DNA of 39,625 nucleotides, taken from a virus. Lineage: Duplodnaviria > Heunggongvirae > Uroviricota > Caudoviricetes. Below the pieces are notes generated by a model that was given only the letters and a program-made list of their open reading frames with translations, made no database searches and had not been told where the DNA came from. The stretch lies in the IMG/VR virus record IMGVR_UViG_2545824712_000011; one strand, written 5' to 3'. This document shows, piece by piece, positions 24,382 to 39,625 of this stretch. Made by a program: the position numbers and the translations under genes. Each line of letters starts with the position of its first letter. Within the stretch, counting starts at the first letter, position 1.

Positions 24382-26847
24382 TCAGAATCCTCCTTTCTTC
24401 TTGGACTGCGGTTCCTCGCGTTCACGGCGGCGCATTTCAGCAGACTGTTGGTCTGTGTCATAAATAGCGCCATTTGCCTGAATGCAATACACCGTGCCGG
24501 TATTGCCATGACGATTGAGACGAAGGATTAGTTCGGTTTCACCAGGTGGAACACTGTCATCAAAAGCACCTTCACGATGGATCCCAACCCAATAATCGCA
24601 ATCCTGTTCAATCTGCCCTGTATCTCGCGAGTCACTTGGTAATGGGCGTTTATTGGTTCGGCTTTCCAATGCGCGGTTAAGCTGCGTCAGAAGCACAACA
24701 ACGCAATCAAGCTCTTTGGCAAGGTTCTTCAGTCCTTTGGTGATCATGCCGTAAGCAAGGTCGTTACGATCGGCTTTCTCAGCGGTCATTAGTGTCAGGT
24801 AATCGACCAGAATCATCCCAACACATCCTTTTTCTCGCTTGATTCGACGGCTTTCGCTGACGATTTGAGCCAGAGATAATCCAGGCGTGTCGTCGATGTA
24901 AAGCAGGTCGATTTCACTCAAGCGATTGGCTGTTTCGATCGCCCTGTTGAAGTCACCATCGTAATCACCCTGATAGCCGTCATCGGCGTCATTTGTCGCC
25001 GGAAGGTAAAAAATATTCGGGTTAACACCAGACTTCTGCCCTACCAGTTTTTCCAGTATCTGATCACCTGGCATTTCAAGGCTGAACATCAAAGCGGGCT
25101 TTTTCTCATGCACTGCGCAATTGATTGCCATCTGGCTGTATAGCGTGGTGTTGTGGGTTAGAATGTATCCGTCAGTTGCATACAAATGTCTCTCGTGGGA
25201 TACCATGATGCAAATGCACTCTTCACGTCCAATATACTCAACCGACGTGATAACAGGCGCACTTGTTTTGATGCGTTTTGCAGTGAATTTTTGCTTCAGG
25301 CGTGGAGATTTTATGTGTGATAGAACCTCATCAGGCAACCTGATTGCGCAAATATGGGCATCCATACCTTTGCGCATTTCTCCCTTATAACTGAATTTCG
25401 GCTCCTGTTTGGTTGTCATACGACACACGCCACCAAGAGAATGCACCAGCCGCTTTACACCATCTGACAGGAACTTGCTTGCCGAGCTAAAGCGCAGGGC
25501 ATTATTTCCTTCAACCCAACCATCGGTTTCAAGTAATCCGCATAGAACATCAATACGAGTTTTCTTATCAGCAGAAAAAATAATATCTGGGATAATTTTA
25601 ATCTCTGACATCCGGCCGTAGATACCAAGCCGTTGCATAACCCGCGTAAGAGATAATTTGCGGCTAAACTTGTGAGATAGGGAGTAATCGCAGCCAGAAA
25701 CATGTCTGACTTCAATATCGTCACCCACTTCAGATCTTACTCGCTCAATGATGTATGGTTCCGTCATGCTGATTCGTGGCGTACCTGCAAGATTTCCATC
25801 GCCAAGTAACGCACCTAACAGCCATGGGCTAATCCCTAAATCAACAGGCAATCCGAAGTCACCGCTAATACCAGGAACATGAATGCGGCTTTGATAGCGA
25901 ACGCATTCCATCATGTCCCGTAGGCGGCAGGTGTCTACAACATCAACGCCACCGGTAATACGGTTACTATGAATTTCCCACAAATGATCATCCGCGCAAT
26001 CAACGGTTCTTCCGTCAGAGAACGTAACTCGGTAAATATCTCGCTCCCCTTGAGGAAAAACTCCAGACACGAATGATGGTTGTCCATCCACTGATGCTAG
26101 GGAATCTCCAACACATACGTCACGAAATGTTGTCCATGAACCATCAGCAAGCAAAATGCGTGAATTAAGCGGTTGCGCTTTCCCCATCTTAGGGCGAGCG
26201 CCAATGACAAACAGAGAGCCTTTCACCAGACCTTTCGGTGACAGCATCCTGTCCAGCGATGGGATCCCTGTGCTCATTCCCCGTTGTTCGCCTGATGGGT
26301 CAAATCGCTTCTCAAGGTCGCTAACCCAGTCTTCCATGACCTCACCAAATGAACGAAGGCCGCGACGCGATCCGGTTTTTGCATGGTCTGTCAGTTGCGT
26401 GAAAATCGACTGAATAGCTTCGTACTTCTGCGTTGCAGTCATTCCGTTGCGGGAATAGAGCAATTCCGTCGCTTCAGTCATGCGGTTGATGGCGTAGCGT
26501 TCCATTGCGGTTTCACGAACCTGCATTGCATAGGCAACGATGTTTGCGGCGCTTGGCGTGTTCTTTGCGATCTCAGCGATATAAGCAAAACCGCCAACAG
26601 ACGCCGTTAATGATTTGCGCTCCAGTTCATCGAAAAGCGTCAGCCCATCTACTGGCTTTTGCTCCCGGTGCATTCTGGTTATTTCATCGAAAATGATTTT
26701 GTGTGGTCGGCTGTAAAATGAATCAGGCTTCAGCATCGCCAGAACTTTCCGGACGCGCTCACTGCTGTCATCATCCAGAAGCAATCCACCAATAACCGCC
26801 TGCTCTGCCTCGATGCTATGGGGCGGCGCATAAAAATTATCGGTCAT
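24382..26847 (-). CDS. Replicative DnaB-like helicase (P22 gene 12 / lambda P position) interrupted by an intein
   Basis: DnaB N-terminal domain (PHSIEAEQAVIGGLLLDD), Walker A GARPKMGK split from TTLYSQMAINCA...KPALMFSLEM by a 343-aa insert, C-terminal RecA-like core. Confidence 0.85.
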   Translation of the reverse strand: MTDNFYAPPHSIEAEQAVIGGLLLDDDSSERVRKVLAMLKPDSFYSRPHKIIFDEITRMHREQKPVDGLTLFDELERKSLTASVGGFAYIAEIAKNTPSAANIVAYAMQVRETAMERYAINRMTEATELLYSRNGMTATQKYEAIQSIFTQLTDHAKTGSRRGLRSFGEVMEDWVSDLEKRFDPSGEQRGMSTGIPSLDRMLSPKGLVKGSLFVIGARPKMGKAQPLNSRILLADGSWTTFRDVCVGDSLASVDGQPSFVSGVFPQGERDIYRVTFSDGRTVDCADDHLWEIHSNRITGGVDVVDTCRLRDMMECVRYQSRIHVPGISGDFGLPVDLGISPWLLGALLGDGNLAGTPRISMTEPYIIERVRSEVGDDIEVRHVSGCDYSLSHKFSRKLSLTRVMQRLGIYGRMSEIKIIPDIIFSADKKTRIDVLCGLLETDGWVEGNNALRFSSASKFLSDGVKRLVHSLGGVCRMTTKQEPKFSYKGEMRKGMDAHICAIRLPDEVLSHIKSPRLKQKFTAKRIKTSAPVITSVEYIGREECICIMVSHERHLYATDGYILTHNTTLYSQMAINCAVHEKKPALMFSLEMPGDQILEKLVGQKSGVNPNIFYLPATNDADDGYQGDYDGDFNRAIETANRLSEIDLLYIDDTPGLSLAQIVSESRRIKREKGCVGMILVDYLTLMTAEKADRNDLAYGMITKGLKNLAKELDCVVVLLTQLNRALESRTNKRPLPSDSRDTGQIEQDCDYWVGIHREGAFDDSVPPGETELILRLNRHGNTGTVYCIQANGAIYDTDQQSAEMRRREREEPQSKKKGGF
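25150..26178 (-). other. Intein (343 aa, Ala1 ... THN) with LAGLIDADG homing-endonuclease domain, in helicase P-loop
   Basis: Insert between GK and T of Walker A; block A-like RILLADGSWTTFRDV, block B DHLW, two dodecapeptide motifs WLLGALLGDGN and VLCGLLETDGW, C-terminal YILTHN followed by Thr. Confidence 0.8.
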
Positions 26848-27727
26848 CGTGTTCACCCTCACGAACTTTCAGGTAGGTATTGTCGTTAAGCAGGAAATCA
26901 AATCCCTTTTTGTGCCAGACGGTTCCGCGTTGATGGTTTGGGCGTTCTTCGAACATCCATCGGCAATTTTCGCCTACGTAGCTCAAATAATTTCTCCAGT
27001 CCTGCATCGTGAACCCATGCCCGTCAAGCTGGCGGGTTATCACTCCGGCTTTGCGCCAGAACGTTCGGATCTGGTTTTTACGCTTGTCATTCAGTGCGCG
27101 GATTCTTGGCGCTTCAGGAAGGATTTCGTGGTAAGCATCGACAACATCCTGACAGCTAACGGAAGGTTTTTTCTTGTCAGACTTTTTGTCTGCTGTGGCA
27201 CTCTCTAATACGTCAGTATTAGAGATATTATTTATATTATTGTTTATGGACAACCGTTGGACAACCGTTGGACAATCTCCGCTGAGAGCCGCGCCATTAC
27301 TGGTGTTTGCGTTGGACAACCGTTGGACAACCGTTGGACAATTTTTTGCCTGAAAATCGTCATATTTAACGATTGTAAACAGGCTAAATTTCTTCCCCAT
27401 CGAGCAAATATTAAGCATCCCTTTCGACTCAAAAGTCCGTAATAAGCTCCGAACTTTGTTGTCGGGGATGAATGTTTCTCTGACCAGCGACGGGCGTCCA
27501 GTTATCATCTGACCGCGATCAACAGTTATCGGACCGATATCCGTATTGACGACAGTAGATTCGTGATTAGCCTTGAGGATTAAGTGAAGCCAAAGATGTA
27601 CTGCCTGAGAGTCCTTATAGAGCCTGCTGTCCATAAACTGGCGGTGTATAGAGACATACCCCATACTGGATGCCTCCTGATGTTGTACAGGGTTATGCCT
27701 GTAATCAGCTAACTTAACGACGCCCAT
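26837..27727 (-). CDS. Replication initiator (lambda O / P22 gene 18 analogue)
   Basis: Position between cII and helicase; contains the iteron array in its coding sequence. Confidence 0.7.
   Translation of the reverse strand: MGVVKLADYRHNPVQHQEASSMGYVSIHRQFMDSRLYKDSQAVHLWLHLILKANHESTVVNTDIGPITVDRGQMITGRPSLVRETFIPDNKVRSLLRTFESKGMLNICSMGKKFSLFTIVKYDDFQAKNCPTVVQRLSNANTSNGAALSGDCPTVVQRLSINNNINNISNTDVLESATADKKSDKKKPSVSCQDVVDAYHEILPEAPRIRALNDKRKNQIRTFWRKAGVITRQLDGHGFTMQDWRNYLSYVGENCRWMFEERPNHQRGTVWHKKGFDFLLNDNTYLKVREGEHDDR
27244..27346. repeat. Origin iterons: two clusters of three 11-bp direct repeats GGACAACCGTT, followed by A+T-rich stretch
   Basis: GGACAACCGTT GGACAACCGTT GGACAATCTCC at 27248-27280 and again at 27314-27346; AT-rich 27341-27400. 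Confidence 0.8.
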
Positions 27728-29778: not shown

Positions 29779-30078
29779 ATGACAGTAGTCATTACATATC
29801 TGGCTGACGATAACGCCAGAAATCGCCGCAGAGCACGCAGACAGGCTCAACGTGAACAGGCAATGCAAGAGCAGCGACTGGCGCGAAAAATTGCGCTAAA
29901 GCTCTCTGGTTGCGTCAGAGCAGATAAAGCAGCATCACTCGGAAGCCTTCGCTGCAAGAAGGCAGAAGAAATCGAGCGTAAACAGAATCGTATTTACTAC
30001 CGCAAGCCACGCAGTGAAATGGGTGTGACTTGTGTTGGTCGCCAGAAAATGAAATTAGGCAGCAAACCACTTATTTGA
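29779..30078 (+). CDS. Antiterminator N-like protein (arginine-rich motif)
   Basis: N-terminal ARM DNARNRRRARRQAQREQ; located downstream of PL/nutL. Confidence 0.75.
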   Translation: MTVVITYLADDNARNRRRARRQAQREQAMQEQRLARKIALKLSGCVRADKAASLGSLRCKKAEEIERKQNRIYYRKPRSEMGVTCVGRQKMKLGSKPLI

Positions 30079-30086
30079 GGTGAGAT

Positions 30087-30557
30087 ATGACAAAATCATG
30101 GAGCGTACCTTTTCCTGAATCAGAAACTGAACATGATGGAATGCCTGTTTTCTGGAGATTCCAAGCGACAGTTGAAGAAGATGGAATCAAAATATTCGCA
30201 CTTCAATATATAGCTTTTCATCAGACAGAGCATTATGCATGGTTGGTTCCTGCGCATTGGATTGTTAATTTTAAACCAGCACCAAATCAGTGGTTACAGG
30301 AATGGAAACAAAGGAGAAATAGATATGCAATTAAGAAAGTAGCAAAAAATGCAGAAAGATCTTTTGCATTCCCAACGAAGAAACTTGCCATTGAGAGTTT
30401 ATTGCGCCGGAAGAAATACCATTTAATGAGAATCAAACAAGATTTGGCTGTTGTATCAACTCTTGTTGATGGGATGAAGAATATTGATACATCAACACCA
30501 GATATTGAATATAACTTTGGGCACAACCAAGAAACAGAAAATTGGGTATTTTATTAG
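30087..30557 (+). CDS. Hypothetical protein, AT-rich moron downstream of N
   Basis: 156-aa ORF, start 9 nt after N stop with GAGG upstream; low G+C; no recognisable motif. Confidence 0.55.
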   Translation: MTKSWSVPFPESETEHDGMPVFWRFQATVEEDGIKIFALQYIAFHQTEHYAWLVPAHWIVNFKPAPNQWLQEWKQRRNRYAIKKVAKNAERSFAFPTKKLAIESLLRRKKYHLMRIKQDLAVVSTLVDGMKNIDTSTPDIEYNFGHNQETENWVFY

Positions 30558-30617
30558 TACGAGTAAGCACTGTGTATTCATTCCAACGAGTGAATACACG
30601 GAGCAATGTCGCTCGTA
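30558..30617 (+). promoter_or_regulatory. Nested inverted repeats (outer TACGAG/CTCGTA, inner 9-bp GTGTATTCA/TGAATACAC)
   Basis: Read directly, immediately after the moron stop. Confidence 0.6.
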
Positions 30618-30661
30618 ACTAAACAGGAGCCGACTTGTTCTGATTATTGGAAATCTTCTTT

Positions 30662-30688
30662 GCCCTCCAGTGTGAGGGCCTTTTTATA
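30662..30688 (+). terminator. tL1-like intrinsic terminator
   Basis: GCCCTC-CAGTGT-GAGGGC followed by CTTTTTAT; a second weaker hairpin plus T-tract at about 30701-30728. Confidence 0.7.
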
Positions 30689-30751
30689 TGCATACCAATA
30701 ACGCTTCACTCGAGGCGTTTTCGTTATGCAATCAAACAGAAGGAGCATCCT

Positions 30752-30922
30752 ATGCAACAGTTCGCTATTGCAGGGGCGGCATCGGTTCGCCCTTTCAACC
30801 CGATTTTATCGGTACAGCATTCACGAAAAAATATTTTAACCGGAGCAGACTTTAAACAACCAAGAATGAAAAGTTTGCTCGAAAAGCTTTGGGATATTTT
30901 GAAACAACAAGGCCGTCCATGA
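30752..30922 (+). CDS. CIII-like protein (candidate FtsH inhibitor)
   Basis: MQQFAIAG... and SLLEKLWDILKQQGRP resemble lambda CIII (MQYAIAG..., LLERITRKL...LIDILNQPGVP); AGGAG upstream. Confidence 0.5.
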   Translation: MQQFAIAGAASVRPFNPILSVQHSRKNILTGADFKQPRMKSLLEKLWDILKQQGRP

Positions 30923-31077
30923 GTTTTACAGATAACTGGTCAGACGAAGAATTCATTCGTCAGATGAAAGATTTAATCGGTAACGAAGGAGATATTCATG
31001 TCACTTGCAACCACAGTGAAGGAGAGCAAGTTACAGAGACGCATGTACACGCAGAAAGCTCTCTGGTATCGCCATAA
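30919..31077 (+). CDS. Small hypothetical protein
   Basis: 52-aa ORF, ATG overlapping cIII-like stop (ATGA). Confidence 0.4.
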   Translation: MSFTDNWSDEEFIRQMKDLIGNEGDIHVTCNHSEGEQVTETHVHAESSLVSP

Positions 31078-31176
31078 TGGTGACCGCGAAGGAATGCGGG
31101 TATGCCTTAATTTGTCCCGAGTCGAAGTATTAAATCAGCGTTATTTCCTTGGGCCATGTCCATTCTGAGGTGAATT

Positions 31177-31884
31177 ATGGATTTGAATAAATTCGATGAG
31201 CCATTCAGCCCTGAAGATATCGAATGGCGAATACAGCAAAGCGGTAAAACACGCGATGGCAAGGTGTGGGCTATGGTGCTGGCTTATGTAACGAACCGGG
31301 CAATCATGAAACGCCTGGACGATGTTTGCGGCAAAGCAGGATGGCGCAATGAATACCGCGATATTCCCAACAACGGCGGCGTTGAATGCGGCATATCAAT
31401 AAAGATTGATTCCGAATGGGTAACCAAATGGGATGCTGCTGAAAACACGCAGGTAGAAGCCGTCAAAGGTGGTCGTTCCGGTGCAATGAAGCGCGCTGCC
31501 GTTCAGTGGGGAATCGGTCGGTATCTGTATAACCTTGAGGAAGGTTTCGCACAAACATCTCTCGATAAAAAGCAGGGGTGGCACAGGGCAAAACTGAAGG
31601 ATGGAACAGGATTTTACTGGCTCCCTCCATCGCTGCCGGGATGGGCAATCCCAGCATCATATAACAAACCATCACCAGAAAATACCAACCAGAAATCTCC
31701 ATCGGTTGACTGCGAACAAATCCTGAAAGACTTCAGCGATTATGCATCAACAGAAACTGACAAGAAAAAACTCATCGAGCGTTATCAGCGTGACTGGCAA
31801 TTAATGGCTGGCAACGAGGAGGCGCAGGCTAAATGCGTTCAGGTAATGAACATCAGAGTTAACGAACTAAAACAGGCGGCATAA
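31177..31884 (+). CDS. Single-strand annealing protein: Rad52-like N-terminal domain fused to Erf-type C-terminal domain
   Basis: WGIGRYLY Rad52-type motif; C-terminus ...ETDKKKLIERYQRDWQLMAGNEEAQAKCVQVMNIRVNELKQAA matches P22 Erf C-terminus as recalled. Confidence 0.75.
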   Translation: MDLNKFDEPFSPEDIEWRIQQSGKTRDGKVWAMVLAYVTNRAIMKRLDDVCGKAGWRNEYRDIPNNGGVECGISIKIDSEWVTKWDAAENTQVEAVKGGRSGAMKRAAVQWGIGRYLYNLEEGFAQTSLDKKQGWHRAKLKDGTGFYWLPPSLPGWAIPASYNKPSPENTNQKSPSVDCEQILKDFSDYASTETDKKKLIERYQRDWQLMAGNEEAQAKCVQVMNIRVNELKQAA

Positions 31885-32391
31885 ATGGCAAGCAGAGGCG
31901 TAAATAAGGTGATTATCCTTGGTCGGGTAGGACAAGACCCGGAAGTTCGATACTCACCATCAGGTACAGCGTTCGCTAACCTGACAATAGCCACGTCAGA
32001 ACAATGGCGAGATAAAAATACTGGCGAGCAAAAGGAATTGACTGAATGGCATCGTGTTGCTGTATCCGGGAAACTGGCTGAGGTCGTGGGGCAGTATGTG
32101 AAAAAAGGTGATCAGATTTATTTCGAGGGAATGCTGAGAACCAGAAAGTGGAAAGACCAGTCAGGGCAAGACCGTTACACAACCGAGGTTCATGTCGGAA
32201 TTAATGGCGTGATGCAAATGCTTGGCGGCATTGGCGACAGCAAACAACAAGCAGCCAGCAGGCAATCACAGAAGCCACAGCAGCAATCATCACCAGCACA
32301 ACACAACGAACCTCCGATGGATTTTGACGACGATATACCCTTTGCACCAGTAACTCTCCCCTTCCCTCGTCACGCTATTCACGCAATTTAA
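31885..32391 (+). CDS. ssb: Single-stranded DNA-binding protein with 15-residue extension past the DDDIPF tip
   Basis: [23 protein letters not shown]...[13 protein letters not shown]... OB fold as E. coli SSB; [11 protein letters not shown] followed by [15 protein letters not shown]. Confidence 0.85.
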
Positions 32392-32404
32392 TCAGGAGAA
32401 AATC

Positions 32405-32701
32405 ATGCCAGCGCCTCTGTATGGTGCGGATGACCCGCGCAACTGCTCCGGTAGCTCCAAGGCGGAGGTGCTGGAAAATATCAAAAACATTTTCGACACG
32501 TTTATTGATCTGCCACCAGAAACAAAAGCAGAACGGATGTACCGACGCGATATACAACTCGCGTTAAAAGATGAGAAGGACCGAACAAACGAAACAGCAA
32601 TGCGACCTTTGCGAAAAGCGACAATAGACAAATTCCCTGAATATATCGACCCGCGTCTGCGTAATTACCGCTCACGCTATGGCGCTATCAGTAATGACTA
32701 A
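32405..32701 (+). CDS. Hypothetical protein (ea region)
   Basis: 98-aa ORF following ssb. Confidence 0.45.
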
Positions 32702-32876
32702 GGAATTTACCACGAGAGGACTTGCATACAATCCCGGCATTCTTCCGGCAGAAATGATTATTCGCCAACGCGTAAAGCCAATGCCATCGAGAGAGGAATT
32801 GCTTAAGAGAAATTCTTTTCCATCAGTGAATCAAAACAAATATCTGAATGCGATGTGGCGGAGTGGGAAGAAATGA
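32694..32876 (+). CDS. Hypothetical protein (ea region)
   Basis: ATG overlapping upstream stop; 60 aa. Confidence 0.35.
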
Positions 32877-33322
32877 AACAAATGTCACTAATTGAGATGG
32901 ATGGTTTTCTGAAAGGTAAATGCATCCCCCGAGATTTAAAGGTTAACGAAACAAACGCTGAATATCTGGTGCGTAAGTTCGGTGAACTTGAATCAAAACT
33001 AGAAACGGCGTTGCGGGAGTGTCGTTCTGCTGGAATCACGATTGATAACCTTGAGGCTAAATGCGCGAAGATGGCTGCTGAAAATACCTCGCTTAAGCAA
33101 TCTGAGAAGGAATTTAATGACTTTTGTCGTGAGGAGTTTAGCGAATGGGAAGATGATGTTACTGAAACCCCAGCCACCGATGCTTTCCTGGCTGAAGTGC
33201 GGGCGCAGGGTGTTGAATTGTTGCGCGAGCATCCTGCTATCCAGATTTGCTCTTTAACGCACGTATGCGACGAGTTCGCCGCCCAGCTTCGTCAGGGGGG
33301 GAAGCGGTATGAGCATAGTTGA
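32855..33322 (+). CDS. Hypothetical protein (ea region)
   Basis: 155-aa ORF; start uncertain (Met at 1, 7, 10). Confidence 0.45.
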
Positions 33323-33911
33323 TGATTCACATCTTACAGACGAAGTGGTTAACGCCGCTTTCGAAGGTACCAATTTCGGGCGCACTGATTTCCGCACCAT
33401 TCTGGCAGAAACAGTTATGAAGCGTGCTGCTGGCTATCACTCTGGCTACACGGCAACGACTATCTGTATTCGCCTGGGATTGCTTGGCAAACACGATCGC
33501 CCGACAAAACTCGGCCTGACCTTCGCTTTCCATCACTACTACAGGCCATGCGTTCGCGAAGCGCTGATTTCGCATAACAGCCTTGAAGTATGGGGCAAAA
33601 CTTGGAGCACAGGAGTCCGCCAAATGAGCAACATCAACAAACAGGCGCTGATTGCAAAAATCAAAAAGCAGGCCGAAAGCTTCGACACAGTGGTGTTGAG
33701 AGAGGATGAAGCTAACGCGCTGCTGGATGAGCTGGAAGCAGCAGAGAAGCGGATTGCTGAACTGGAAGCGCGGGAAATACTGCTCCCGGAACGTAGCAGC
33801 ATGCTTCATCGAACAGATTTTCACGAGGATTACCAAACGGTAATGGCATACAAAGTTTCTGAAGTCATCGATGCAATCCGCGCTACTGGCATTCGCATCA
33901 AAGGAGAGTGA
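33309..33911 (+). CDS. Hypothetical protein (ea region)
   Basis: 200-aa ORF overlapping neighbours. Confidence 0.5.
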   Translation: MSIVDDSHLTDEVVNAAFEGTNFGRTDFRTILAETVMKRAAGYHSGYTATTICIRLGLLGKHDRPTKLGLTFAFHHYYRPCVREALISHNSLEVWGKTWSTGVRQMSNINKQALIAKIKKQAESFDTVVLREDEANALLDELEAAEKRIAELEAREILLPERSSMLHRTDFHEDYQTVMAYKVSEVIDAIRATGIRIKGE

Positions 33912-33912
33912 G

Positions 33913-34488
33913 ATGAGCACTATCACTAAAGAACGTATCGAATTGTTCATTAAATCCCCGCTTGAAAACGGGCTTACCCGTGGCGAACAAATGGAACTGG
34001 CACGAATTGCGCTGGCATCACTGGAAGCAGAGCCTATTGGCGCATTCCACATTGCAGAACAGCAAGTTGACGGCACAAGTGACTACATCAAGGATGGGGA
34101 ATGGCCTATTGATAATGGGATTATTGAGGTCTACGCCGCCCCACCCATTCCAGTAGTACCTGAAGAAAAACCAATGCCTAACCCTCTTAAAATGTACGCG
34201 GTCGATGCTGTTGCCGCTATTGCAGAGGTGAGAGGCTGGAATGCCTGTCGTGCCGCTATGCTTCAGGGTAAATCCGAACAACCACAAAACGCACAACAAA
34301 ATATTCCGGAAAATATTCCCGGTGGCAACTCTCCGGTAACTCCGGATGGTTGGGTTATGGTGCCGAAGGAGCCAACTCAGGCCATGATTAAAGCGTGGCT
34401 ATCAGAGATTGCTAACTTTCGCGGTCATGCTGCTGGTTACAGGGCTGCTATAGAAGCAGCACCACAACTGGAGGTTAACCGTGGCTAA
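33913..34488 (+). CDS. Hypothetical protein (ea region)
   Basis: Start MSTITKERIELF... with GGAG upstream. Confidence 0.5.
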   Translation: MSTITKERIELFIKSPLENGLTRGEQMELARIALASLEAEPIGAFHIAEQQVDGTSDYIKDGEWPIDNGIIEVYAAPPIPVVPEEKPMPNPLKMYAVDAVAAIAEVRGWNACRAAMLQGKSEQPQNAQQNIPENIPGGNSPVTPDGWVMVPKEPTQAMIKAWLSEIANFRGHAAGYRAAIEAAPQLEVNRG

Positions 34489-34765
34489 CCTGCAACTTGC
34501 CGTCAAAGGTGAATACTTCGATGCCATGATTCGAGGAGAGAAAACGGAAGAGTATCGACTGTGTAATGACTACTGGGATAAGCGAATTATGTTCCGGGAA
34601 TATGACCGCCTGATTATCACAAAGGGATATCCGAAGCGTGACGATTCCAGCCGCAGAATTGACGTTCCGTATAGCGGCTATGAAATCAAGACAATCACAC
34701 ATCCGCACTTCGGCGATAAACCGGTAAAGGTGTTCGCGATAAAGGTGAATATCAGCAATGAATAA
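34481..34765 (+). CDS. Small hypothetical protein, possible ASCH/PUA-like fold
   Basis: GTG start with GGAGG upstream; KGEYFDAMIRGEKTEEYR resembles ASCH-type motif (weak). Confidence 0.4.
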   Translation: MANLQLAVKGEYFDAMIRGEKTEEYRLCNDYWDKRIMFREYDRLIITKGYPKRDDSSRRIDVPYSGYEIKTITHPHFGDKPVKVFAIKVNISNE

Positions 34766-34769
34766 CAAT

Positions 34770-34797
34770 CCTCGCGCTCGCGGGGATTTCTTTTATA
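34770..34797 (+). terminator. Hairpin plus T-tract
   Basis: CCTCGCG...CGCGGGG then ATTTCTTTTAT. Confidence 0.45.
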
Positions 34798-34807
34798 TGG
34801 GGATAAT

Positions 34808-35608
34808 ATGACCATCCACTTTCACGGCAGCCCAATATGGGGTGATGAGCATGCCCATACAGATATGCTGATTAAAGCCCTTTACCGTGATGGTGGGGCT
34901 TTTGTTTCATTTGCCAGACCAGAGCAGATGAAAAAGATTGCCATGTTCCCTTGTGATATACGCCTTGATAACGGTGCTTTTAGCGACTGGATGAAAGCAT
35001 TAAAGAAAGGCACTCCGGTAGACTGGAGTAAGAGACGAGCAAAATTCTACGACTTTGTTGGGAAGTGGTTCAGCAGAATTGAATGGTTTCTTATACCTGA
35101 CGTTATCGAAGGGACAGAGGCAGAAAACGACGAGCAGATTGAGTTGGTTCCTGATTGGCTAAAATCAAAAGCGGTTCCGGTCTGGCATACCGACGAATCA
35201 ATTGAACGTCTTTTACGCCTTTCTGGCAAATTTGAATGGGTGGCGATTGGATGCTGCGGCCCACACAGGCACATACGCTCTAAATGGTGGGAACAGAGAA
35301 TGGATGAAGTTTTCACTGAGCTTTATATCAATCGTAATTTGAAAGTGAAAATTCATGGTCTTCGAATGCTCGACGTGAGAGTTCTTGGTATGTATCCGTT
35401 CGCCAGTGCGGATTCTACTAATGTTGCTGTTAACGTACCGAAGACAGAGAAGCGATTTCCTGAGATTACCGACAAACTGGCACGCACAGCTGTACTTCGC
35501 GCTGCTATTGAAAAGGTGCACCCGCCATCGATATCAGCATGGGTAGACAGAAAGATGAGAGAGCCGGCGCAAGCCGGTTTTTTATTTGAATTCACCGACG
35601 CCGCTTAA
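34808..35608 (+). CDS. Hypothetical 266-aa protein flanked by 16-bp direct repeats
   Basis: Long ORF with GGGGA upstream; function not recognisable. Confidence 0.55.
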   Translation: MTIHFHGSPIWGDEHAHTDMLIKALYRDGGAFVSFARPEQMKKIAMFPCDIRLDNGAFSDWMKALKKGTPVDWSKRRAKFYDFVGKWFSRIEWFLIPDVIEGTEAENDEQIELVPDWLKSKAVPVWHTDESIERLLRLSGKFEWVAIGCCGPHRHIRSKWWEQRMDEVFTELYINRNLKVKIHGLRMLDVRVLGMYPFASADSTNVAVNVPKTEKRFPEITDKLARTAVLRAAIEKVHPPSISAWVDRKMREPAQAGFLFEFTDAA

Positions 35609-35626
35609 TGCGGATTTCTTTTATAT
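35598..35626 (+). terminator. Hairpin plus T-tract
   Basis: GCCGC-TTAAT-GCGG then ATTTCTTTTAT. Confidence 0.45.
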
Positions 35627-35666
35627 GAACTCGCTACGGCGGTTTTTGTTTTATGGAGATGATAAA

Positions 35667-35837
35667 TGCACTTCCGAGTCACAGGTGAATGGAATGGAGA
35701 GCCATTCGACAGGGTTATCGAAGCAGAGGACATCAACGACTGCTATAACCACTGGATGATATGGGCGCAGATAGCGCATGCAGACGTAACCAATATTCGA
35801 ATTGAAGAACTGAAAGAACACCAAGACGCCTGATGGC
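35667..35837 (+). CDS. Small hypothetical protein (not in ORF track)
   Basis: Hand translation MHFRVTGEWNGEPFDRVIEAEDINDCYNHWMIWAQIAHADVTNIRIEELKEHQDA; GGAGATG upstream. Confidence 0.45.
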
Positions 35838-35850
35838 GGTTTTTTATTGC
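35829..35850 (+). terminator. Hairpin plus T-tract
   Basis: CGCC-TGAT-GGCG then GTTTTTTATT. Confidence 0.4.
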
Positions 35851-35855
35851 CTGAT

Positions 35856-35871
35856 TTGCAGGTTCGATTCC
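35856..35871 (+). other. tRNA T-arm-like fragment TTGCAGGTTCGATTCC
   Basis: Canonical T-stem/T-loop sequence with no upstream tRNA body; 19 bp before xis ATG. Confidence 0.6.
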
Positions 35872-35890
35872 CTATTCGGAGATAGCACTC

Positions 35891-36091
35891 ATGCAACACG
35901 AACTACAGCCTGATTCCCTGGTTGATTTGAAATTCATCATGGCTGATACTGGCTTTGGTAAAACCTTCATCTACGACCGGATTAAGTCCGGCGACCTGCC
36001 AAAAGCCAAAGTTATCCACGGTCGAGCAAGATGGTTATATCGTGACCATTGTGAATTCAAAAATAAGCTCTTAAGCCGCGCCAATGGGTAA
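35891..36091 (+). CDS. xis: Excisionase / AlpA-family DNA-binding protein
   Basis: HTH-like FIMADTGFGKTFIYDRIKSGDLPKAKVIHGRARWLYRD; last gene of early-left operon. Confidence 0.7.
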   Translation: MQHELQPDSLVDLKFIMADTGFGKTFIYDRIKSGDLPKAKVIHGRARWLYRDHCEFKNKLLSRANG

Positions 36092-36164
36092 AATAGCGGG
36101 TAAAATATTTCTCACATCTAAAAAATACCATTCCAATCAACCCCCTGCCGCTTCAAGTAGATGT

Positions 36165-36179
36165 CTGCAGGGGACACCA
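36165..36179 (+). other. tRNA 3' end fragment CTGCAGGGGACACCA (att core candidate)
   Basis: Abuts exactly the T-arm fragment at 35856-35871 to form ...GCAGG-TTCGATT-CCTGC-AGGGGAC-A-CCA; 165 bp upstream of int. Confidence 0.65.
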
Positions 36180-36303
36180 TCCCGCCGTACACTACCGTCT
36201 ACCATTGTCTATAAACCCCATGTAACCATATAAAAATAAAGAGATTTTATTCTCATGACGTCCATTGCCGTCTATTGAAATCAAGTAAATCTATGGGGCA
36301 TAA

Positions 36304-36343
36304 TTGGGGGCATTGCTGGTTCGATTGTAAATGTGCCCCCAAT
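36304..36343 (+). promoter_or_regulatory. Stem-loop (9-bp stem TTGGGGGCA/TGCCCCCAA) ending 1 nt before int ATG
   Basis: Read directly; 21-nt loop contains GGTTCGATT. Confidence 0.6.
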
Positions 36344-37630
36344 ATGTCCAGAAATACCCTCAACAAATTAACAGACCGTCAGTGCAAAGCAGCTAAGCCA
36401 CGAGACAAAACTTATAAATTGTCTGATGGTGGTGGTCTTTATCTTGAAGTATCCCAGACCGGGTCGAAGTATTGGCGAATGAAGTATCGCCGCCCATCAG
36501 ATAAGAAAGAAGACAGACTTGCTTTTGGTGTATATCCAACCATTAGCTTACAAGACGCCAGAGAAAAACGAGACAACGCCAAAAAGTTGTTAGTCAAGGG
36601 GATAGATCCCAAAGCAGAGCAAAGAGCAGCAAAAGCAGAAGAAAAAGGTGCATTCACTTTTGAGACAATAGGACGTCAATGGGTTGAAAGCCACCAGATG
36701 TGGAACGAAGCCCACCGAAAACGCGTACTTAGAAGCCTTGAAATGTATATTTTCCCTCACATTGGCACTTCGGATATTCGCAAACTGGAGGCGATGACAA
36801 TTTTACCTTTGTTTAAGAAGGTAGATGACGCCGGGAAACACGATACAGCCAACCGACTTAAACAACGAGTTAAGGACATCATACATAGCGCCCGTCTGAG
36901 CGGCATTAAGACAGAAATCATCACGAATGATCTCGATGTCCGGTTAATGCAATATGAAACTAAGCATCATGCCGCACTACATCCCAGAGATTTACCAGAC
37001 TTTTTCACTCGATTGGGCAGCTTTAAAGGTAATCCTCTTACCCGCCTTGCCATTGAGCTAACCATGTTGACCTTTGTTCGTTCAAGCGAGTTAAGGTTTG
37101 CCCGTTGGAAAGAGTTTGACCTTGATCGGGCTGAGTGGATTATCCCTAAAAAAAGAGAGCCTATCGATGGTGTGAGGTTTTCCACCCGTGGCACAAAGAC
37201 GGGAAAAGACGAACATATCGTGCTTCTTAGCCGTCAGGCTGTTTCTATTGTAAAGCAGTTGAGAGAACTAAGCGGAAGCTACGATGTTGTGTTTCCGAAT
37301 GAAAGAAACACCAAAGGCGTGATGAGTGAAAACACGGTAAACAAGGCATTACGCTTAATGGGCTATAACACGCAAGAAGACGTAACTGGACATGGATTCC
37401 GTGCCACAGCCTGTAGTTCCCTGATGGAGTCCGGTTTGTGGCAGGAGGACGCAGTAGAGCGCCAGATGAGCCACAAAGAATATAAAGACGTTAAAAGAGC
37501 CTACAAGCACAAGGCTGATTACTTAGAAGAGCGCAAACTAATGCTTCAATGGTGGGCAGATTATCTGGACGCCAATCGAGAAATACACATAAGCCCTTAC
37601 GAGTTCGGAAGGAGAACACGCCGTGACTAA
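36344..37630 (+). CDS. int: Tyrosine integrase, P4 family
   Basis: N-terminus MSRNTLNKLTDRQCKAAKPRDKTYKLSDGGGLYLEV... and C-terminal HGFRAT...VKRAYKHKADYLEERKLMLQWWADYLD typical of P4-like integrases. Confidence 0.9.
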   Translation: MSRNTLNKLTDRQCKAAKPRDKTYKLSDGGGLYLEVSQTGSKYWRMKYRRPSDKKEDRLAFGVYPTISLQDAREKRDNAKKLLVKGIDPKAEQRAAKAEEKGAFTFETIGRQWVESHQMWNEAHRKRVLRSLEMYIFPHIGTSDIRKLEAMTILPLFKKVDDAGKHDTANRLKQRVKDIIHSARLSGIKTEIITNDLDVRLMQYETKHHAALHPRDLPDFFTRLGSFKGNPLTRLAIELTMLTFVRSSELRFARWKEFDLDRAEWIIPKKREPIDGVRFSTRGTKTGKDEHIVLLSRQAVSIVKQLRELSGSYDVVFPNERNTKGVMSENTVNKALRLMGYNTQEDVTGHGFRATACSSLMESGLWQEDAVERQMSHKEYKDVKRAYKHKADYLEERKLMLQWWADYLDANREIHISPYEFGRRTRRD

Positions 37631-38378
37631 GATGACAGGACTAGATGCGTTTTATAACGAGTCAGAAGATAAAATCTGGTTTGGTAATCTGATCAGCGAA
37701 CTGGCAAGACTAAACAATGAAAATGAAAGAATGATAGCTGCCGCTATCTTAAGTAACTACAGATTGAGCAAGACTAAACCAGATACTTTAGGGGGGCTGG
37801 GCTTTTATCAGTTCGATTGGGTATCTGGTTTTACGACAAATGAAGACTTTGAAAAGCAGTGTGTGGAGTTTTTAGGTCTTCTGGCTATGGGGCATGAATA
37901 CAGGGAGAGCCCGATACCGGGGGAAGAAGGGACTTTCAACGTTAGGAAAGGAGAAGACTTTTTATATCACGATGATGAGGATGATTGGTATGGGTCTTAC
38001 GATTCGTTTTATTTCAAGCGATCCGAGGTTGTGAACTTCTTCCCAGAACTGGATATGAATGTTCCAGATAACGAACCAGAAATTGGAGCACTGTCAAAAA
38101 AAGTAGAAAGAGAACAAAACTGGAGAGGAAAAGATACGGCTTTAAAGATGATCGCCGGAATGGCGATTGCCTTATTTGAATCAAGCAAAGATTTCCATAG
38201 TGGAGGAAACCTTAGTATCAATAGGGTTAGTGCCCAAGTAATAGAAAACAACATAATATTCGGGAACGATGAAGACAGCGATACCCACCCAGATACATTT
38301 CGGAGATTGCTAACGAACGCTTTGGATAAGTACGCCCCCAAATTTAAGAACAAAGCAACCAAAAAGCGTCCAAAATAA
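37623..38378 (+). CDS. Hypothetical 251-aa protein co-transcribed with int
   Basis: Start overlaps int stop (GTG 37623 or ATG 37632); acidic, no recognisable motif. Confidence 0.55.
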   Translation: MTKMTGLDAFYNESEDKIWFGNLISELARLNNENERMIAAAILSNYRLSKTKPDTLGGLGFYQFDWVSGFTTNEDFEKQCVEFLGLLAMGHEYRESPIPGEEGTFNVRKGEDFLYHDDEDDWYGSYDSFYFKRSEVVNFFPELDMNVPDNEPEIGALSKKVEREQNWRGKDTALKMIAGMAIALFESSKDFHSGGNLSINRVSAQVIENNIIFGNDEDSDTHPDTFRRLLTNALDKYAPKFKNKATKKRPK

Positions 38379-38534
38379 AGGAAGGATGTTCCCAAATTGT
38401 GCGTTAGAACTAAAAAATAACGCCCAATTTGGGGTAATTCTATTCCCAAAAATTTTTTCTCCAAATTCACAGAAAACTTAAAAAAACAATGATTTACTAT
38501 CTCACATAGTCAAGCAACGTATTACGAGGTAGAT

Positions 38535-38726
38535 ATGAAAAAGTCGCTGATTCGGCTATCTGAGGTTTTGAAACGCACTGGCTATAGCAAGGCGTGGGTA
38601 TATGCTCTGATGAGCCGAGGACAATTCCCCCAATCAGTCAAGATTGGTGCTCGCGCAATAGCTTTTATTGAAAGCGAGATCGATGACTGGATCGATCAAC
38701 GTATAGCCGAATCGCGTAGCAACTAA
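38535..38726 (+). CDS. alpA: AlpA-family transcriptional regulator
   Basis: LIRLSEVLKRTGYSKAWVYALMSRGQFPQSVKIGARAIAFIESEIDDWI typical AlpA HTH. Confidence 0.8.
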   Translation: MKKSLIRLSEVLKRTGYSKAWVYALMSRGQFPQSVKIGARAIAFIESEIDDWIDQRIAESRSN

Positions 38727-38774
38727 AGAACAGAAACAAACAGGATACAAACAATACGTTATTAGGTATTAAGA

Positions 38775-38966
38775 ATGCAGTTGAAACCTACCAATCAAAA
38801 GCTGAACGTAACCCATGTTGATTTTGAAACCTTCGCGGCACTGATTAGATCAGAGCCACAAAAGGTGAGCACCAGCACCAGGGTTTATGATGTGAAATCC
38901 ACCAGCGGTGGAAAAGCTATCGGCATTGCCTCTGGCGATGATTACTTAGTAATAGATCTGATTTAA
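38775..38966 (+). CDS. Hypothetical protein
   Basis: 63-aa ORF downstream of alpA. Confidence 0.4.
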   Translation: MQLKPTNQKLNVTHVDFETFAALIRSEPQKVSTSTRVYDVKSTSGGKAIGIASGDDYLVIDLI

Positions 38967-39047
38967 TCGCACAAAAATTGTAGAGTAATTTGGGGAGACA
39001 GGAAGTCTCCTCCGTATTGCATTTTGGTACAACAGTAAGGGAATAAA

Positions 39048-39242
39048 ATGATTAATTACCTGACCGCTAAAGACGCAGCAGAATATCTTGGCGTCTGTCT
39101 GTCACGCTTCTATCAGTTAAAGCGATATATCCGAAGCTTTCCTCCCTATATAAATCAGACCATCAATGGTCGCAAGCGCCGGGTGTGGCTTGCCTCCAGC
39201 CTTGATCAATTTGCCGACAGATTTCTGGGGGGACGAAAATGA
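39048..39242 (+). CDS. Small HTH DNA-binding protein (excisionase/MerR-like)
   Basis: LTAKDAAEYLGVCLSRFYQLKR HTH-like. Confidence 0.5.
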   Translation: MINYLTAKDAAEYLGVCLSRFYQLKRYIRSFPPYINQTINGRKRRVWLASSLDQFADRFLGGRK

Positions 39243-39625
39243 GCACTCTTACACGCTCTCAGGTCGCCGCGAATATACGCGATATCCTACTAAGTGGCAG
39301 GAAGCTTACCCCAAAAGAGTTTGACGACATATTAAGGAAAGCCGGAAATCACGAACGTAGTCGCGTTTTAACGCTGTTACGCAACGATTGGGGAATTCCT
39401 GTTGAGCAGTTTAAAACAGGGGCGTATCACGTCACAGAACGCAATTTAGAAGCATACCACAGCGATAAAGACGAAACATTGAAGATCTGGAGGACGAACG
39501 CCAGATATGTAAAGACATTGCGTAAGGTAAACATAACGTTGTCGTTGTTGCGTGGGCTGGTGGGTAAAGTGCCTGAAGACACGCTTAGAACTGTTTACAA
39601 GGGTATTGAAACCAAATACCTGTGA
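39239..39625 (+). CDS. Hypothetical protein
   Basis: 128-aa ORF overlapping upstream stop; ends at window edge with TGA. Confidence 0.5.
   Translation: MSTLTRSQVAANIRDILLSGRKLTPKEFDDILRKAGNHERSRVLTLLRNDWGIPVEQFKTGAYHVTERNLEAYHSDKDETLKIWRTNARYVKTLRKVNITLSLLRGLVGKVPEDTLRTVYKGIETKYL

Follow-up and report, generated by a model that had tools for sequence, protein, structure and literature searches.

The stretch at positions 32405–35837, plus strand, of the E. coli prophage window (the whole DNA analysed, 39,625 nt) forms, with a probability of roughly three in four, the distal end of the early-left (PL-type) operon in a P22-like prophage, its accessory portion, and represents a mosaic of eight independently exchangeable genes rather than one system. 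That the window is P22-like is seen from its tailspike head-binding domain, P22 antirepressor, CI, and CII. As in a PL operon, the block follows erf and ssb and precedes xis. The Erf annealing protein (31177–31884, plus strand; PF04098, E=5e-26; phrog_1097, E=9e-130) precedes the phage SSB of 168 aa on the left flank (31885–32391, plus strand; TIGR00621, E=4.5e-49), and a TorI-type excisionase of 66 aa forms the right flank (35891–36091, plus strand; phrog_66, E=3e-8). The exact sequence of this excisionase is named 'response regulator inhibitor TorI' by the sources and is annotated as torI in E. coli genomes. The exo-xis region of lambda and the ea region of P22 are the counterparts of the block.

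Eight plus-strand ORFs fill the stretch, about 97% of which is coding. The sequence-only reading had described eight tightly packed plus-strand genes between ssb and xis, and they are real: all eight match a PHROG family at E <= 1e-37, genes 1–6 and 8 with refined starts are exact matches to proteins called in public E. coli genomes, and gene 7 has a 100% match (P0001) among public E. coli proteins. It had also stated that the genes overlap or abut each other, which holds for genes 1–6 but not further downstream, where spacers of 42 nt (genes 6/7), 57 nt (genes 7/8), and 57 nt (gene 8/xis) contain terminator-like hairpins. In the promoter scan, none of the eight genes had a promoter-like site ahead of it on the plus strand, as expected if transcription reads through from PL.

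Gene 1 (32405–32701, plus strand) encodes a 98-aa product identified by sequence as the P22-type anti-RecBCD protein Abc2 (anti-RecBCD protein 2). An AGGAG Shine–Dalgarno sequence is located 7 nt upstream. Residues 1–98 match positions 1–97 of the profile PF11043 (Anti-RecBCD_p2; E=3.3e-35, 120.6 bits against a cutoff of 25), phrog_656 is matched at E=6e-44, and the alignment with P22 Abc2 (PDB 8B1T chain A) runs end to end with 58 of 98 residues identical (59%, E=1e-31). The Erf and SSB genes lie directly upstream, so an Erf-type recombinase is encoded alongside, as expected for the family. The mechanism of Abc2 on RecBCD, a lytic-phase function, has been described (PMC9836394). No abc1 gene was recognised beside gene 1.

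Gene 2 (32694–32876, plus strand) overlaps gene 1 by 8 nt and codes for a 60-aa protein with DUF2737 (PF10930, E=4e-30, 103.9 bits; phrog_1117, E=6e-37); the exact protein is present in NCBI as 'DUF2737 family protein'. Gene 3 (32873–33322, plus strand; phrog_614, E=8e-60) shares an ATGA overlap with gene 2 and encodes a coiled-coil protein of 149 aa, present in this exact form in E. coli, with only weak coiled-coil matches in Pfam. It resembles HK620 p08, according to the note 'similar to HK620p08' on HK106 gp33. It is mosaic itself, because its N- and C-terminal parts match different PHROGs (phrog_583 at aa 9–49 and phrog_492 at aa 63–152). The 200-aa product of gene 4 (33309–33911, plus strand), named 'ead/Ea22-like family protein' by NCBI, has a probable Ea22-like architecture: an N-terminal module (aa 1–98; phrog_18088, E=2e-52), a coiled coil with a weak Ead_Ea22 signature (PF13935 at aa 134–166, E=0.024, 15.6 bits, below the cutoff of 27), and a C-terminal module (aa 134–200; phrog_1667/250/11761). 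An N-terminal segment, a coiled coil, and a variable C-terminal domain are the layout of Ead/Ea22 proteins (PMC10834534). Gene 5 (33913–34488, plus strand; phrog_60, E=4e-42) starts 1 nt past the gene 4 stop and has no Pfam match. Its 191-aa form is exact in NCBI, while the 205-aa form is absent there; in the long ORF, phrog_3323/5117 begin at residue 15 and phrog_12449 covers the C-terminal half. Since separate PHROGs cover its two halves, gene 5 is mosaic as well. Gene 8 (35666–35833, plus strand; 55 aa; phrog_676, E=2.5e-38) adjoins xis and corresponds to the p35 ORF that lies beside xis in lambda, in agreement with the note 'similar to lambdap35' on HK106 gp28. Its exact sequence was found on at least 1000 contigs, and it is very common in Enterobacteriaceae prophages. 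Genes 3, 5, and 8 fall in common phage families.

Gene 6 (34481–34765, plus strand; phrog_625, E=9e-51) has a GTG start, overlaps gene 5 by 8 nt, and encodes a small protein of 94 aa that NCBI names 'ASCH domain-containing protein'. A weak ASCH-like hint had been noticed in one of the genes, and by sequence it is weak indeed: PF04266 (ASCH) is matched at residues 6–28 only (E=0.055, 14.6 bits against a cutoff of 21.2), and there is no NCBIfam match. The AF2 model (pLDDT 87) supports the hint. In a Foldseek search of the PDB, ASCH-family chains made up 14 of the 15 top matches, including 3iuw, 5gus, 2z0t, 1xne, and YqfB 9kyh, although with E-values of only 0.01–0.5 and TM scores of 0.5–0.6. An ASCH-like (PUA-like) fold is thus predicted for gene 6.

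Gene 7 (34808–35608, plus strand) encodes a putative 'solo' DpdA-like DNA-guanine transglycosylase of 266 aa. It matches PHROG 887 'queuine tRNA-ribosyltransferase' (E=3e-102), and its model is a high-confidence TIM barrel, a minimal form of the TGT-type (beta/alpha)8 barrel. It is 98.5% identical to HK106 gp29, 58% to Salmonella phage 7-11 gp032, and 43% to Pantoea phage MED16 DpdA (gp38). When a family profile of 65 sequences was compared in hhalign with the DpdA of Streptococcus phage MS1 (gp6), which resides in a QueC-QueD-QueE-FolE-Vut_1 cluster, the probability was 98.6% (E=8e-16, 154 columns), with the motifs LDNGAF, PDVI, PVWH, KIHG, and SADST all aligned. Residues D54, D98, D202, H127, and H183 are invariant in the 65 sequences, down to 25% identity, and line up with the D/D/H/H/D motifs in MS1 DpdA. 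Judging from motif order, the Asp residues probably match Asp95, Asp130, and Asp256 of bacterial DpdA. The family has 2026 representatives at E <= 0.001. By these sequence comparisons, gene 7 is assigned to the phage DpdA family, which the literature connects with the modification of DNA by 7-deazaguanines and with protection against restriction. HK106 gp29 and 7-11 gp032 are listed as DpdA of phages without preQ0 genes (Hutinet et al. 2019), and the near-identical HK106 orthologue of gene 7 is already catalogued as a 'DpdA-only' case.

Standard profiles do not recognise the family. Gene 7 alone has no Pfam match at E <= 1, and none of the 65 members matches any Pfam family at E <= 0.01, including TGT PF01702 and DpdA PF23859; MS1 DpdA itself reaches only E=0.0011 with PF23859, below the cutoff. 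Neither the search of the family profile against PDB sequences nor the hhalign comparison with E. coli Tgt was significant. The structural zinc site CXCX2CX22H, one of the features that define TGT and bacterial DpdA, is absent from gene 7 and from the 65 sequences; gene 7 has only three Cys residues (C49, C149, and C150), kept in 1, 1, and 3 of the 65 sequences, respectively.

Apart from the ASCH hint, the block had been said to have no recognisable domains. This does not hold for gene 1 (Abc2, PF11043), gene 2 (DUF2737), gene 4 (Ea22-like), or gene 7 (PHROG 887), and two of the eight genes that were already identifiable had been missed. The view of the early-left region as a site of anti-restriction, anti-RecBCD, and host-takeover genes agrees with the presence of Abc2, with the DpdA family membership of gene 7, and with a Lar restriction-alleviation gene beside the same ASCH-DpdA pair in the related context L009. 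Only Abc2 is well characterised, so the eight are not all well-characterised proteins of mundane function.

It is unlikely, but it deserves to be weighed, that gene 7 shares its descent with DpdA but does not modify DNA, acting on another substrate (tRNA like TGT, or protein like CBASS Cap10) or persisting as a low-activity remnant without protective effect. Singleton DpdAs cluster apart from those of full-pathway phages, and functional divergence has been raised by the authors (Hutinet et al. 2019). Phages 7-11 and MED16, both without preQ0 genes, contain dADG in their DNA, but in these two tested solo-DpdA phages only 0.02% and 0.13% of G is modified, and MED16 DNA is still cut by all reported enzymes with G-containing sites, with no protection in vitro; any protective role is putative. 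Also consistent with a non-modifying protein are the missing Zn subdomain, the missing DNA-binding insertions of bacterial DpdA, and the length of 266 aa against 413 aa. Mycobacteriophage Orion, with a solo DpdA, has no 7-deazaguanine; this negative result is explained by its host, which lacks preQ0 synthesis. The DpdA of phage 9g alone in E. coli inserts dPreQ0 from the host precursor. Three Asp and two His residues kept invariant in a family of 2026 representatives argue for retained transglycosylase chemistry, and the closest significant outside relative is a DNA-modifying phage DpdA. Moreover, one relative is fused to a Dam (DNA adenine) methyltransferase and preceded by a gene for a YhhQ/Vut_1-type precursor transporter, and VUT (preQ0-type) transporters adjoin homologues in several other phages. 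No genes for synthesis of 7-deazaguanine precursors (preQ0 or G+) were found in the window.

Gene 7 is carried on a discrete cassette of 828 bp flanked by a 16-nt direct repeat, GGATTTCTTTTATATG, and hairpins. The left junction (34767–34799, plus strand; terminator scan) comprises a terminator-like hairpin after gene 6 and the left repeat copy at 34784–34799; the right junction (35601–35627, plus strand) comprises the hairpin CCGCTTAATGCGG, which overlaps the stop codon of gene 7, and the right copy at 35612–35627. An empty site lacking the cassette is found in E. coli 7/2. A cassette with its own hairpins has a moron-like anatomy, and defence genes are often found in the accessory regions of prophages. 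That some of the genes are lysogenic-conversion 'morons' guarding the host against superinfecting phages from the repressed prophage, and not serving phage counter-defence in lytic growth, is nevertheless highly improbable: gene 7, like the rest of the block, has no promoter-like site upstream, and from erf to xis all genes are read in the same direction as PL. The PADLOC defence models found nothing for seven of the eight proteins, and gene 3 has only weak coiled-coil matches, to JetC (E=4e-4) and to an RT model, regarded as noise. Abc2, finally, is a lytic-phase function (PMC9836394).

Pieces of the stretch are shared by 533 phage records and by 3601 of 5426 complete E. coli genomes, and none of these records covers at least 80% of it. 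Phage HK106 is the best phage, with 55% coverage and 93% identity. Related loci keep the gene order with modules swapped. As a whole the arrangement is new, a mosaic built from known modules, and no single record holds it in full. A single cooperating system of eight genes, in which, for example, the ASCH protein would read or process the DpdA-inserted base (preQ0 to ADG), might be suggested by tight packing, common orientation, and overlapping stop and start codons, by the binding of modified nucleic-acid bases by ASCH/PUA-like domains (YqfB being an amidohydrolase), and by the ASCH-DpdA adjacency also seen in E. coli 573 and L009, but it is scarcely credible, as identical DpdA genes occur with differing upstream neighbours (DUF551, DUF4752, or ASCH) and differing downstream genes, and with three different integrases, and ASCH occurs without DpdA in E. 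coli 7/2 and ST104. Moreover, an HMM of the ASCH family had no match in the retrieved DpdA loci of 7-11 (6.7 kb), MED16 (10.8 kb), and HK106 (8.4 kb), genes 6 and 7 are set apart by a terminator-like hairpin and by the cassette junction, and the whole set is in no record.

As an exchangeable accessory part of the PL-type operon, the eight genes would be transcribed with erf and ssb towards xis. After infection or induction, antiterminated transcription would read through the small hairpins; both steps are modelled on the lambda/P22 paradigm. By analogy with P22, Abc2 would bind RecC and, with host PpiB, reprogramme RecBCD, which would then stop destroying phage DNA ends and serve Erf/SSB recombination. 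The solo DpdA may act by double displacement via the conserved Asp pair, with D202 as the nucleophile and D54 as the general acid/base. In replicated phage DNA, it may replace a small share of the guanines with preQ0 from the host queuosine pathway (FolE, QueD, QueE, and QueC), the E. coli host presumably making this precursor. The result would be low-level dPreQ0 or dADG, which may weaken certain restriction systems or other defences that target DNA. For the Ea22-like protein and genes 2, 3, 5, and 8, the most likely role is to modulate host physiology or the lysis–lysogeny decision, a role that has been reported for lambda exo-xis genes.

The early-left regions of HK106, HK620, CUS-3, HK022, and P22-like phages ('ea' regions) have the same position and orientation, running from erf through abc2, DUF2737, Ea22-like, and small genes to xis, and pieces of the stretch are 88–95% identical to them at the nt level. 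The order in HK106 is Abc2, DUF2737, HK620 p08-like, further genes, DpdA, lambda-p35-like, and xis. Unlike in HK106, SSB stands here in place of gp36, genes 4–6 are other modules (HK106 has DUF4752 and a 29-aa ORF upstream of DpdA), and the excisionase is TorI-type instead of HK022-type. Gene 1 is a full-length homologue, of 98 aa, of P22 Abc2 (PDB 8B1T/8B1U) and, as in P22, adjoins the Erf recombinase gene, but here ssb separates erf from abc2.

The solo DpdAs of 7-11, MED16, and HK106 likewise occur without preQ0/G+ genes, in hosts with the full queuosine pathway. The MED16 cluster of solo DpdA has been named 'DpdA/TGT_1', and the group corresponds to the third group of Hutinet et al. (2019). 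Gene 7 sits on a small cassette in a temperate P22-like prophage, whereas 7-11 and MED16, where dADG was measured, are virulent or unrelated. Bacterial DpdA (Salmonella Montevideo, PDB 7UI4) is only 16% identical to gene 7; compared with bacterial DpdA/TGT, gene 7 has neither the zinc site nor the large insertions, and neither a DpdB ATPase partner nor DpdC.

The lambda exo-xis region (ea22, ea8.5, orf60a/61/63/73) has Gam instead of Abc2 and is without DpdA, and the Pfam and PHROG names of the eight genes reveal no similarity to the conserved orf60a-orf63-orf61-orf73 cassette. It likewise lies between recombination genes and xis, is transcribed early, and is mosaic; it and the present block both contain a lambda-p35-like ORF by xis and a coiled-coil protein, here of putative Ea22-like type, whose C-terminal domain is variable.

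The stretch at 32405-35837 carries eight consecutive ORFs on the plus strand (ORF listing of 30000-39625), and all of them match PHROG phage-protein families (8/8, E from 1e-37 to 1e-102). Start codons were refined using profile alignments and the DNA. With these starts, genes 1-6 and 8 are exact end-to-end matches to proteins of public E. coli genomes, and a public protein (P0001) is 100% identical to gene 7. The tight packing of eight genes reported in the sequence-only reading is thus real, and so are the flanks named there. The genes for the Erf annealing protein and SSB precede the block, and an excisionase gene follows it, for which public entries with the exact sequence say TorI. From gene 1 to gene 6, neighbors abut or overlap by 4-14 nt. 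The spacers between genes 6 and 7, genes 7 and 8, and gene 8 and xis are 42-57 nt long, each with terminator-like hairpins. No promoter-like site was found on the plus strand upstream of any of the eight genes. Within the stretch, ARAGORN predicted no tRNA and Rfam gave nothing above noise. NCBIfam has no name for any of the eight genes. The absence of recognizable domains, claimed earlier with the exception of a weak ASCH-like hint, did not hold, as Abc2 and DUF2737 (both Pfam) and the match of gene 7 to PHROG 887 were found. The result is largely an annotation clean-up, as the "eight unknown genes" include a classic anti-RecBCD gene and a gene for a DNA-modification enzyme of an already published class.

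Gene 1 (32405-32701, 98 aa) matches the Pfam family Anti-RecBCD_p2 over its full length with 120.6 bits and shares 59% identity with P22 Abc2 (PDB 8B1T); on this sequence evidence it is Abc2. The structure of P22 Abc2 has been solved in complex with RecBCD (PMC9836394). Gene 2 (32694-32876, 60 aa) is a DUF2737 protein (Pfam). The 60-aa form occurs on only four contigs, and the usual forms have 54-55 aa. At 32694-32714, the apparent start position of its relatives is occupied by ACG, so the upstream in-frame ATG overlapping the abc2 stop codon seems to be used here. Gene 3 (32873-33322, 149 aa) encodes a coiled-coil protein, the two halves of which match different PHROGs. Gene 4 (33309-33911, 200 aa) is named ead/Ea22-like by NCBI, with a score under the Pfam threshold. 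It is built of an N-terminal module, a coiled coil, and a C-terminal module, as described for Ea22 proteins (PMC10834534). Gene 5 (33913-34488, 191 aa) has PHROG matches only, which differ between its two halves. A literature search for DUF2737, DUF551, and DUF4752 returned no functional data for gene 2 or gene 5. Gene 8 (35666-35833, 55 aa) is a very common ORF adjoining xis, and the annotators of HK106 compared its counterpart to lambda p35.

Gene 6 (34481-34765, 94 aa) has an ASCH signal below the threshold in Pfam. Its AlphaFold model has a pLDDT of 87, and 14 of the 15 top Foldseek neighbors in PDB belong to the ASCH family, among them the ac4C amidohydrolase YqfB, with weak scores (E 0.01-0.5, TM 0.5-0.6). 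A 97-aa ORF antisense to this gene, at 34475-34768 on the minus strand, matches phrog_20945 with E=1e-58. The confident fold and the operon orientation belong to the plus-strand frame, and phrog_20945 therefore probably consists of shadow ORFs mis-called in other phage genomes.

Gene 7 (34808-35608, 266 aa) matches PHROG 887, "queuine tRNA-ribosyltransferase", with E=3e-102, and has no match in Pfam, NCBIfam, or PADLOC. In tblastn against phage genomes, its relatives were HK106 gp29 (98.5%), Salmonella phage 7-11 gp032 (58%), and Pantoea phage MED16 gp38 (43%). HK106 YP_007151699 and 7-11 YP_004782407 are both included as phage DpdAs in Supplementary Data 1 of Hutinet et al. 2019. DNA of phage 7-11 is reported to contain dADG at about 0.02% of G, and that of MED16 at about 0.13% of G. 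HHpred assigned the MED16 DpdA to Thermotoga TGT with 99.18% probability, and all reported enzymes with G-containing sites still cut MED16 DNA. The DpdA of phage 9g, expressed alone in E. coli, swaps guanines in DNA for host-made preQ0.

A model of gene 7 computed from a 39-sequence alignment is a confident TIM barrel (pLDDT 92), for which Foldseek returned generic TIM barrels only. Searches against PDB with phmmer and two family profiles gave no significant hit, hhalign of a shallow and a deeper family profile against E. coli Tgt was not significant, and Pfam matched 0 of 65 family members. Searched with the family profile, a representative library of 1.8 billion proteins gave 2026 representatives at E <= 0.001. 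The alignment of the 65 family members, reaching down to 25% identity, was compared in hhalign with the DpdA of Streptococcus phage MS1, which lies within a QueC-QueD-QueE-FolE-Vut_1-DpdA cluster, and matched it over 154 columns with 98.6% probability and E=8e-16. In register are the motifs LDNGAF/VDSSAY, PDVI/LDVI, PVWH/PVFH, KIHG/KVHG, and SADST/SADST (family/MS1). Residues D54, A57, D98, H127, H183, D202, and S203 are invariant across the family. By order and motif, D54/F58 would correspond to Asp95/Phe99 (acid/base, gate), D98 to Asp130 (base recognition), and D202 to Asp256 (nucleophile) of bacterial DpdA. Unlike TGT and bacterial DpdA, gene 7 has no zinc site, and its three cysteines are not conserved in the family. 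This zinc-free 266-aa enzyme may show the DNA transglycosylase family reduced to its minimal catalytic core.

Neighbors of gene 7 relatives support a connection with 7-deazaguanine and DNA. In P0006, a protein 76% identical to gene 7, the enzyme is fused to a Dam-type DNA adenine methyltransferase, and the preceding gene, with overlapping stop and start codons, encodes a Vut_1/YhhQ-type transporter of the preQ0 transporter family. VUT transporters flank gene 7 homologues in other phages as well. The 460-aa DpdA-Dam fusion coupled to the upstream Vut_1/YhhQ-type transporter was seen on three metagenomic prophage-like contigs (L011, 3540-5383, and also L012 and L013) and has the appearance of a small module that combines two modifications with import of the precursor.

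Gene 7 forms a mobile cassette. The locus of E. coli 7/2 shares the ASCH gene, the 55-aa gene, torI, and the element downstream with the window but lacks gene 7; the alignment of the two shows an 828-bp insertion with gene 7, and the empty site lies at about 5985-6013 of that locus (L005). A 16-nt direct repeat, GGATTTCTTTTATATG, flanks the cassette (34784-34799 and 35612-35627), and both copies serve as the U-tail of a small hairpin. The junction reads GGATTTCTTTTAT(A/C)TG, and HK106 has the same junctions with another upstream gene. Identical gene 7 proteins follow DUF551, DUF4752, or ASCH genes, their downstream genes vary, and they occur with three different integrases. About 1.5% of complete E. 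coli genomes have the cassette, and in 82 of the 82 complete genomes carrying gene 7 the PGAP label is "hypothetical protein".

That the ASCH protein and DpdA form a writer/reader or writer/processing pair was considered and rejected, as was a single system made of all eight genes. Identical DpdA proteins have varied neighbors, and the ASCH-family HMM had no match in the retrieved loci surrounding DpdA in 7-11, MED16, and HK106, which argues against both proposals. A terminator-like hairpin and the cassette junction stand between genes 6 and 7, ASCH is found without DpdA, and DpdA without ASCH. Coding on the minus strand was also rejected, as no family supports the large antisense ORFs except phrog_20945, the probable shadow-ORF family; those of 249, 124, and 102 aa have no PHROG match. 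A known defense system had no support in PADLOC.

Sequence markers identify the window as a P22-like prophage: a tailspike bearing the P22 head-binding domain, P22 antirepressor, CI, CII, and a DnaB-type helicase. Genes 1-8 prolong the erf-ssb transcription unit in the direction of xis. This arrangement is the PL operon layout in lambda and P22. Upstream of the early-left genes, a 99-aa ORF at 29779-30078 (plus strand) has the arginine-rich motif NARNRRRARRQAQREQ and no Pfam match; it is probably an N-type antiterminator. The 826-aa DnaB-like replicative helicase (24382-26862, minus strand) has a weak LAGLIDADG_3 match at aa 439-485, within a gap of about 450 aa between the DnaB N-terminal (aa 13-117) and C-terminal (aa 572-792) domains, which suggests an intein within the prophage helicase.

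The "int" following xis is a P4-type integrase (Arm-DNA-bind_3) with a 251-aa ORF overlapping its end, after which an AlpA regulator is encoded at 38535-38726 (PF05930, E=4e-18). The gene after AlpA in E. coli 7/2 encodes a rolling-circle Rep protein. The region 36275-39625 (plus strand) resembles an integrative element of the CP4-57/P4 type, distinct from the prophage and adjoining its TorI end. As the P4-type integrase seemingly belongs to this element, the integrase of the prophage itself may be encoded at another site, as in KplE1. Between gene 8 and xis, at 35857-35875, the sequence GCAGGTTCGATTCC resembles a tRNA T-loop, and a second GGTTCGATT is located near 36318. Neither ARAGORN nor Rfam found a tRNA at these sites, which may be remnants of an attachment site or of tRNA-derived sequence.

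Pieces of the stretch with 88-99% identity were found in 533 phage records and in 3601 of 5426 complete E. coli genomes, and no record among these phages and genomes covers 80% of it. The best phage match is HK106, with 93% identity over 55% coverage. Gene order is kept and single modules are exchanged in HK106, E. coli 573, and E. coli 7/2, and the stretch follows the usual mosaic logic of lambdoid accessory regions. On an E. coli contig (L009, 235-1657), a Lar restriction-alleviation gene (PF14354) precedes the same ASCH-DpdA pair, which underlines the role of this slot as a collector of anti-restriction functions.

Identities and anatomy come from the analysis; the steps proposed here follow the lambda/P22 model and the literature cited. 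Once the phage infects or the prophage is induced, PL transcription would pass the hairpins by antitermination. Abc2 would re-program RecBCD so that Erf/SSB recombination can proceed, and the solo DpdA would exchange a small fraction of phage DNA guanines for host-made preQ0. The Ea22-like and small proteins would probably act on the lysis-lysogeny decision or on host physiology, as reported for exo-xis genes. A more far-reaching reading, given a probability of only about 0.3, has two parts. Temperate lambdoid and P22-like coliphages with this zinc-less, minimal solo DpdA cassette may mark their DNA with 7-deazaguanine from host preQ0 at induction, and genes 2, 3, 5, 8, and the ASCH gene could include at least one new anti-defense or host-takeover factor. 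If true, the marking would be an epigenetic counter-defense dependent on host metabolism. A temperate P22-like or HK97-like coliphage with its tractable host could settle whether zinc-less singleton DpdAs modify DNA with host precursors. The same setting suits the questions of the modified sequence motif, of dADG rather than dPreQ0, and of protection by sparse modification.

Public databases already contain the eight proteins, and a published catalogue of DpdAs lists the key orthologue; the novelty is confined to this particular mosaic. The phage literature already has the HK106 orthologue as DpdA, while bacterial annotation still calls the protein hypothetical. The nearest known relatives of the stretch include the early-left accessory regions of HK106, HK620, CUS-3, and P22, and also the lambda exo-xis region and P22 Abc2. 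For gene 7, the solo DpdAs of 7-11, MED16, and HK106 are the nearest known, and bacterial DpdA and TGT are more distant.
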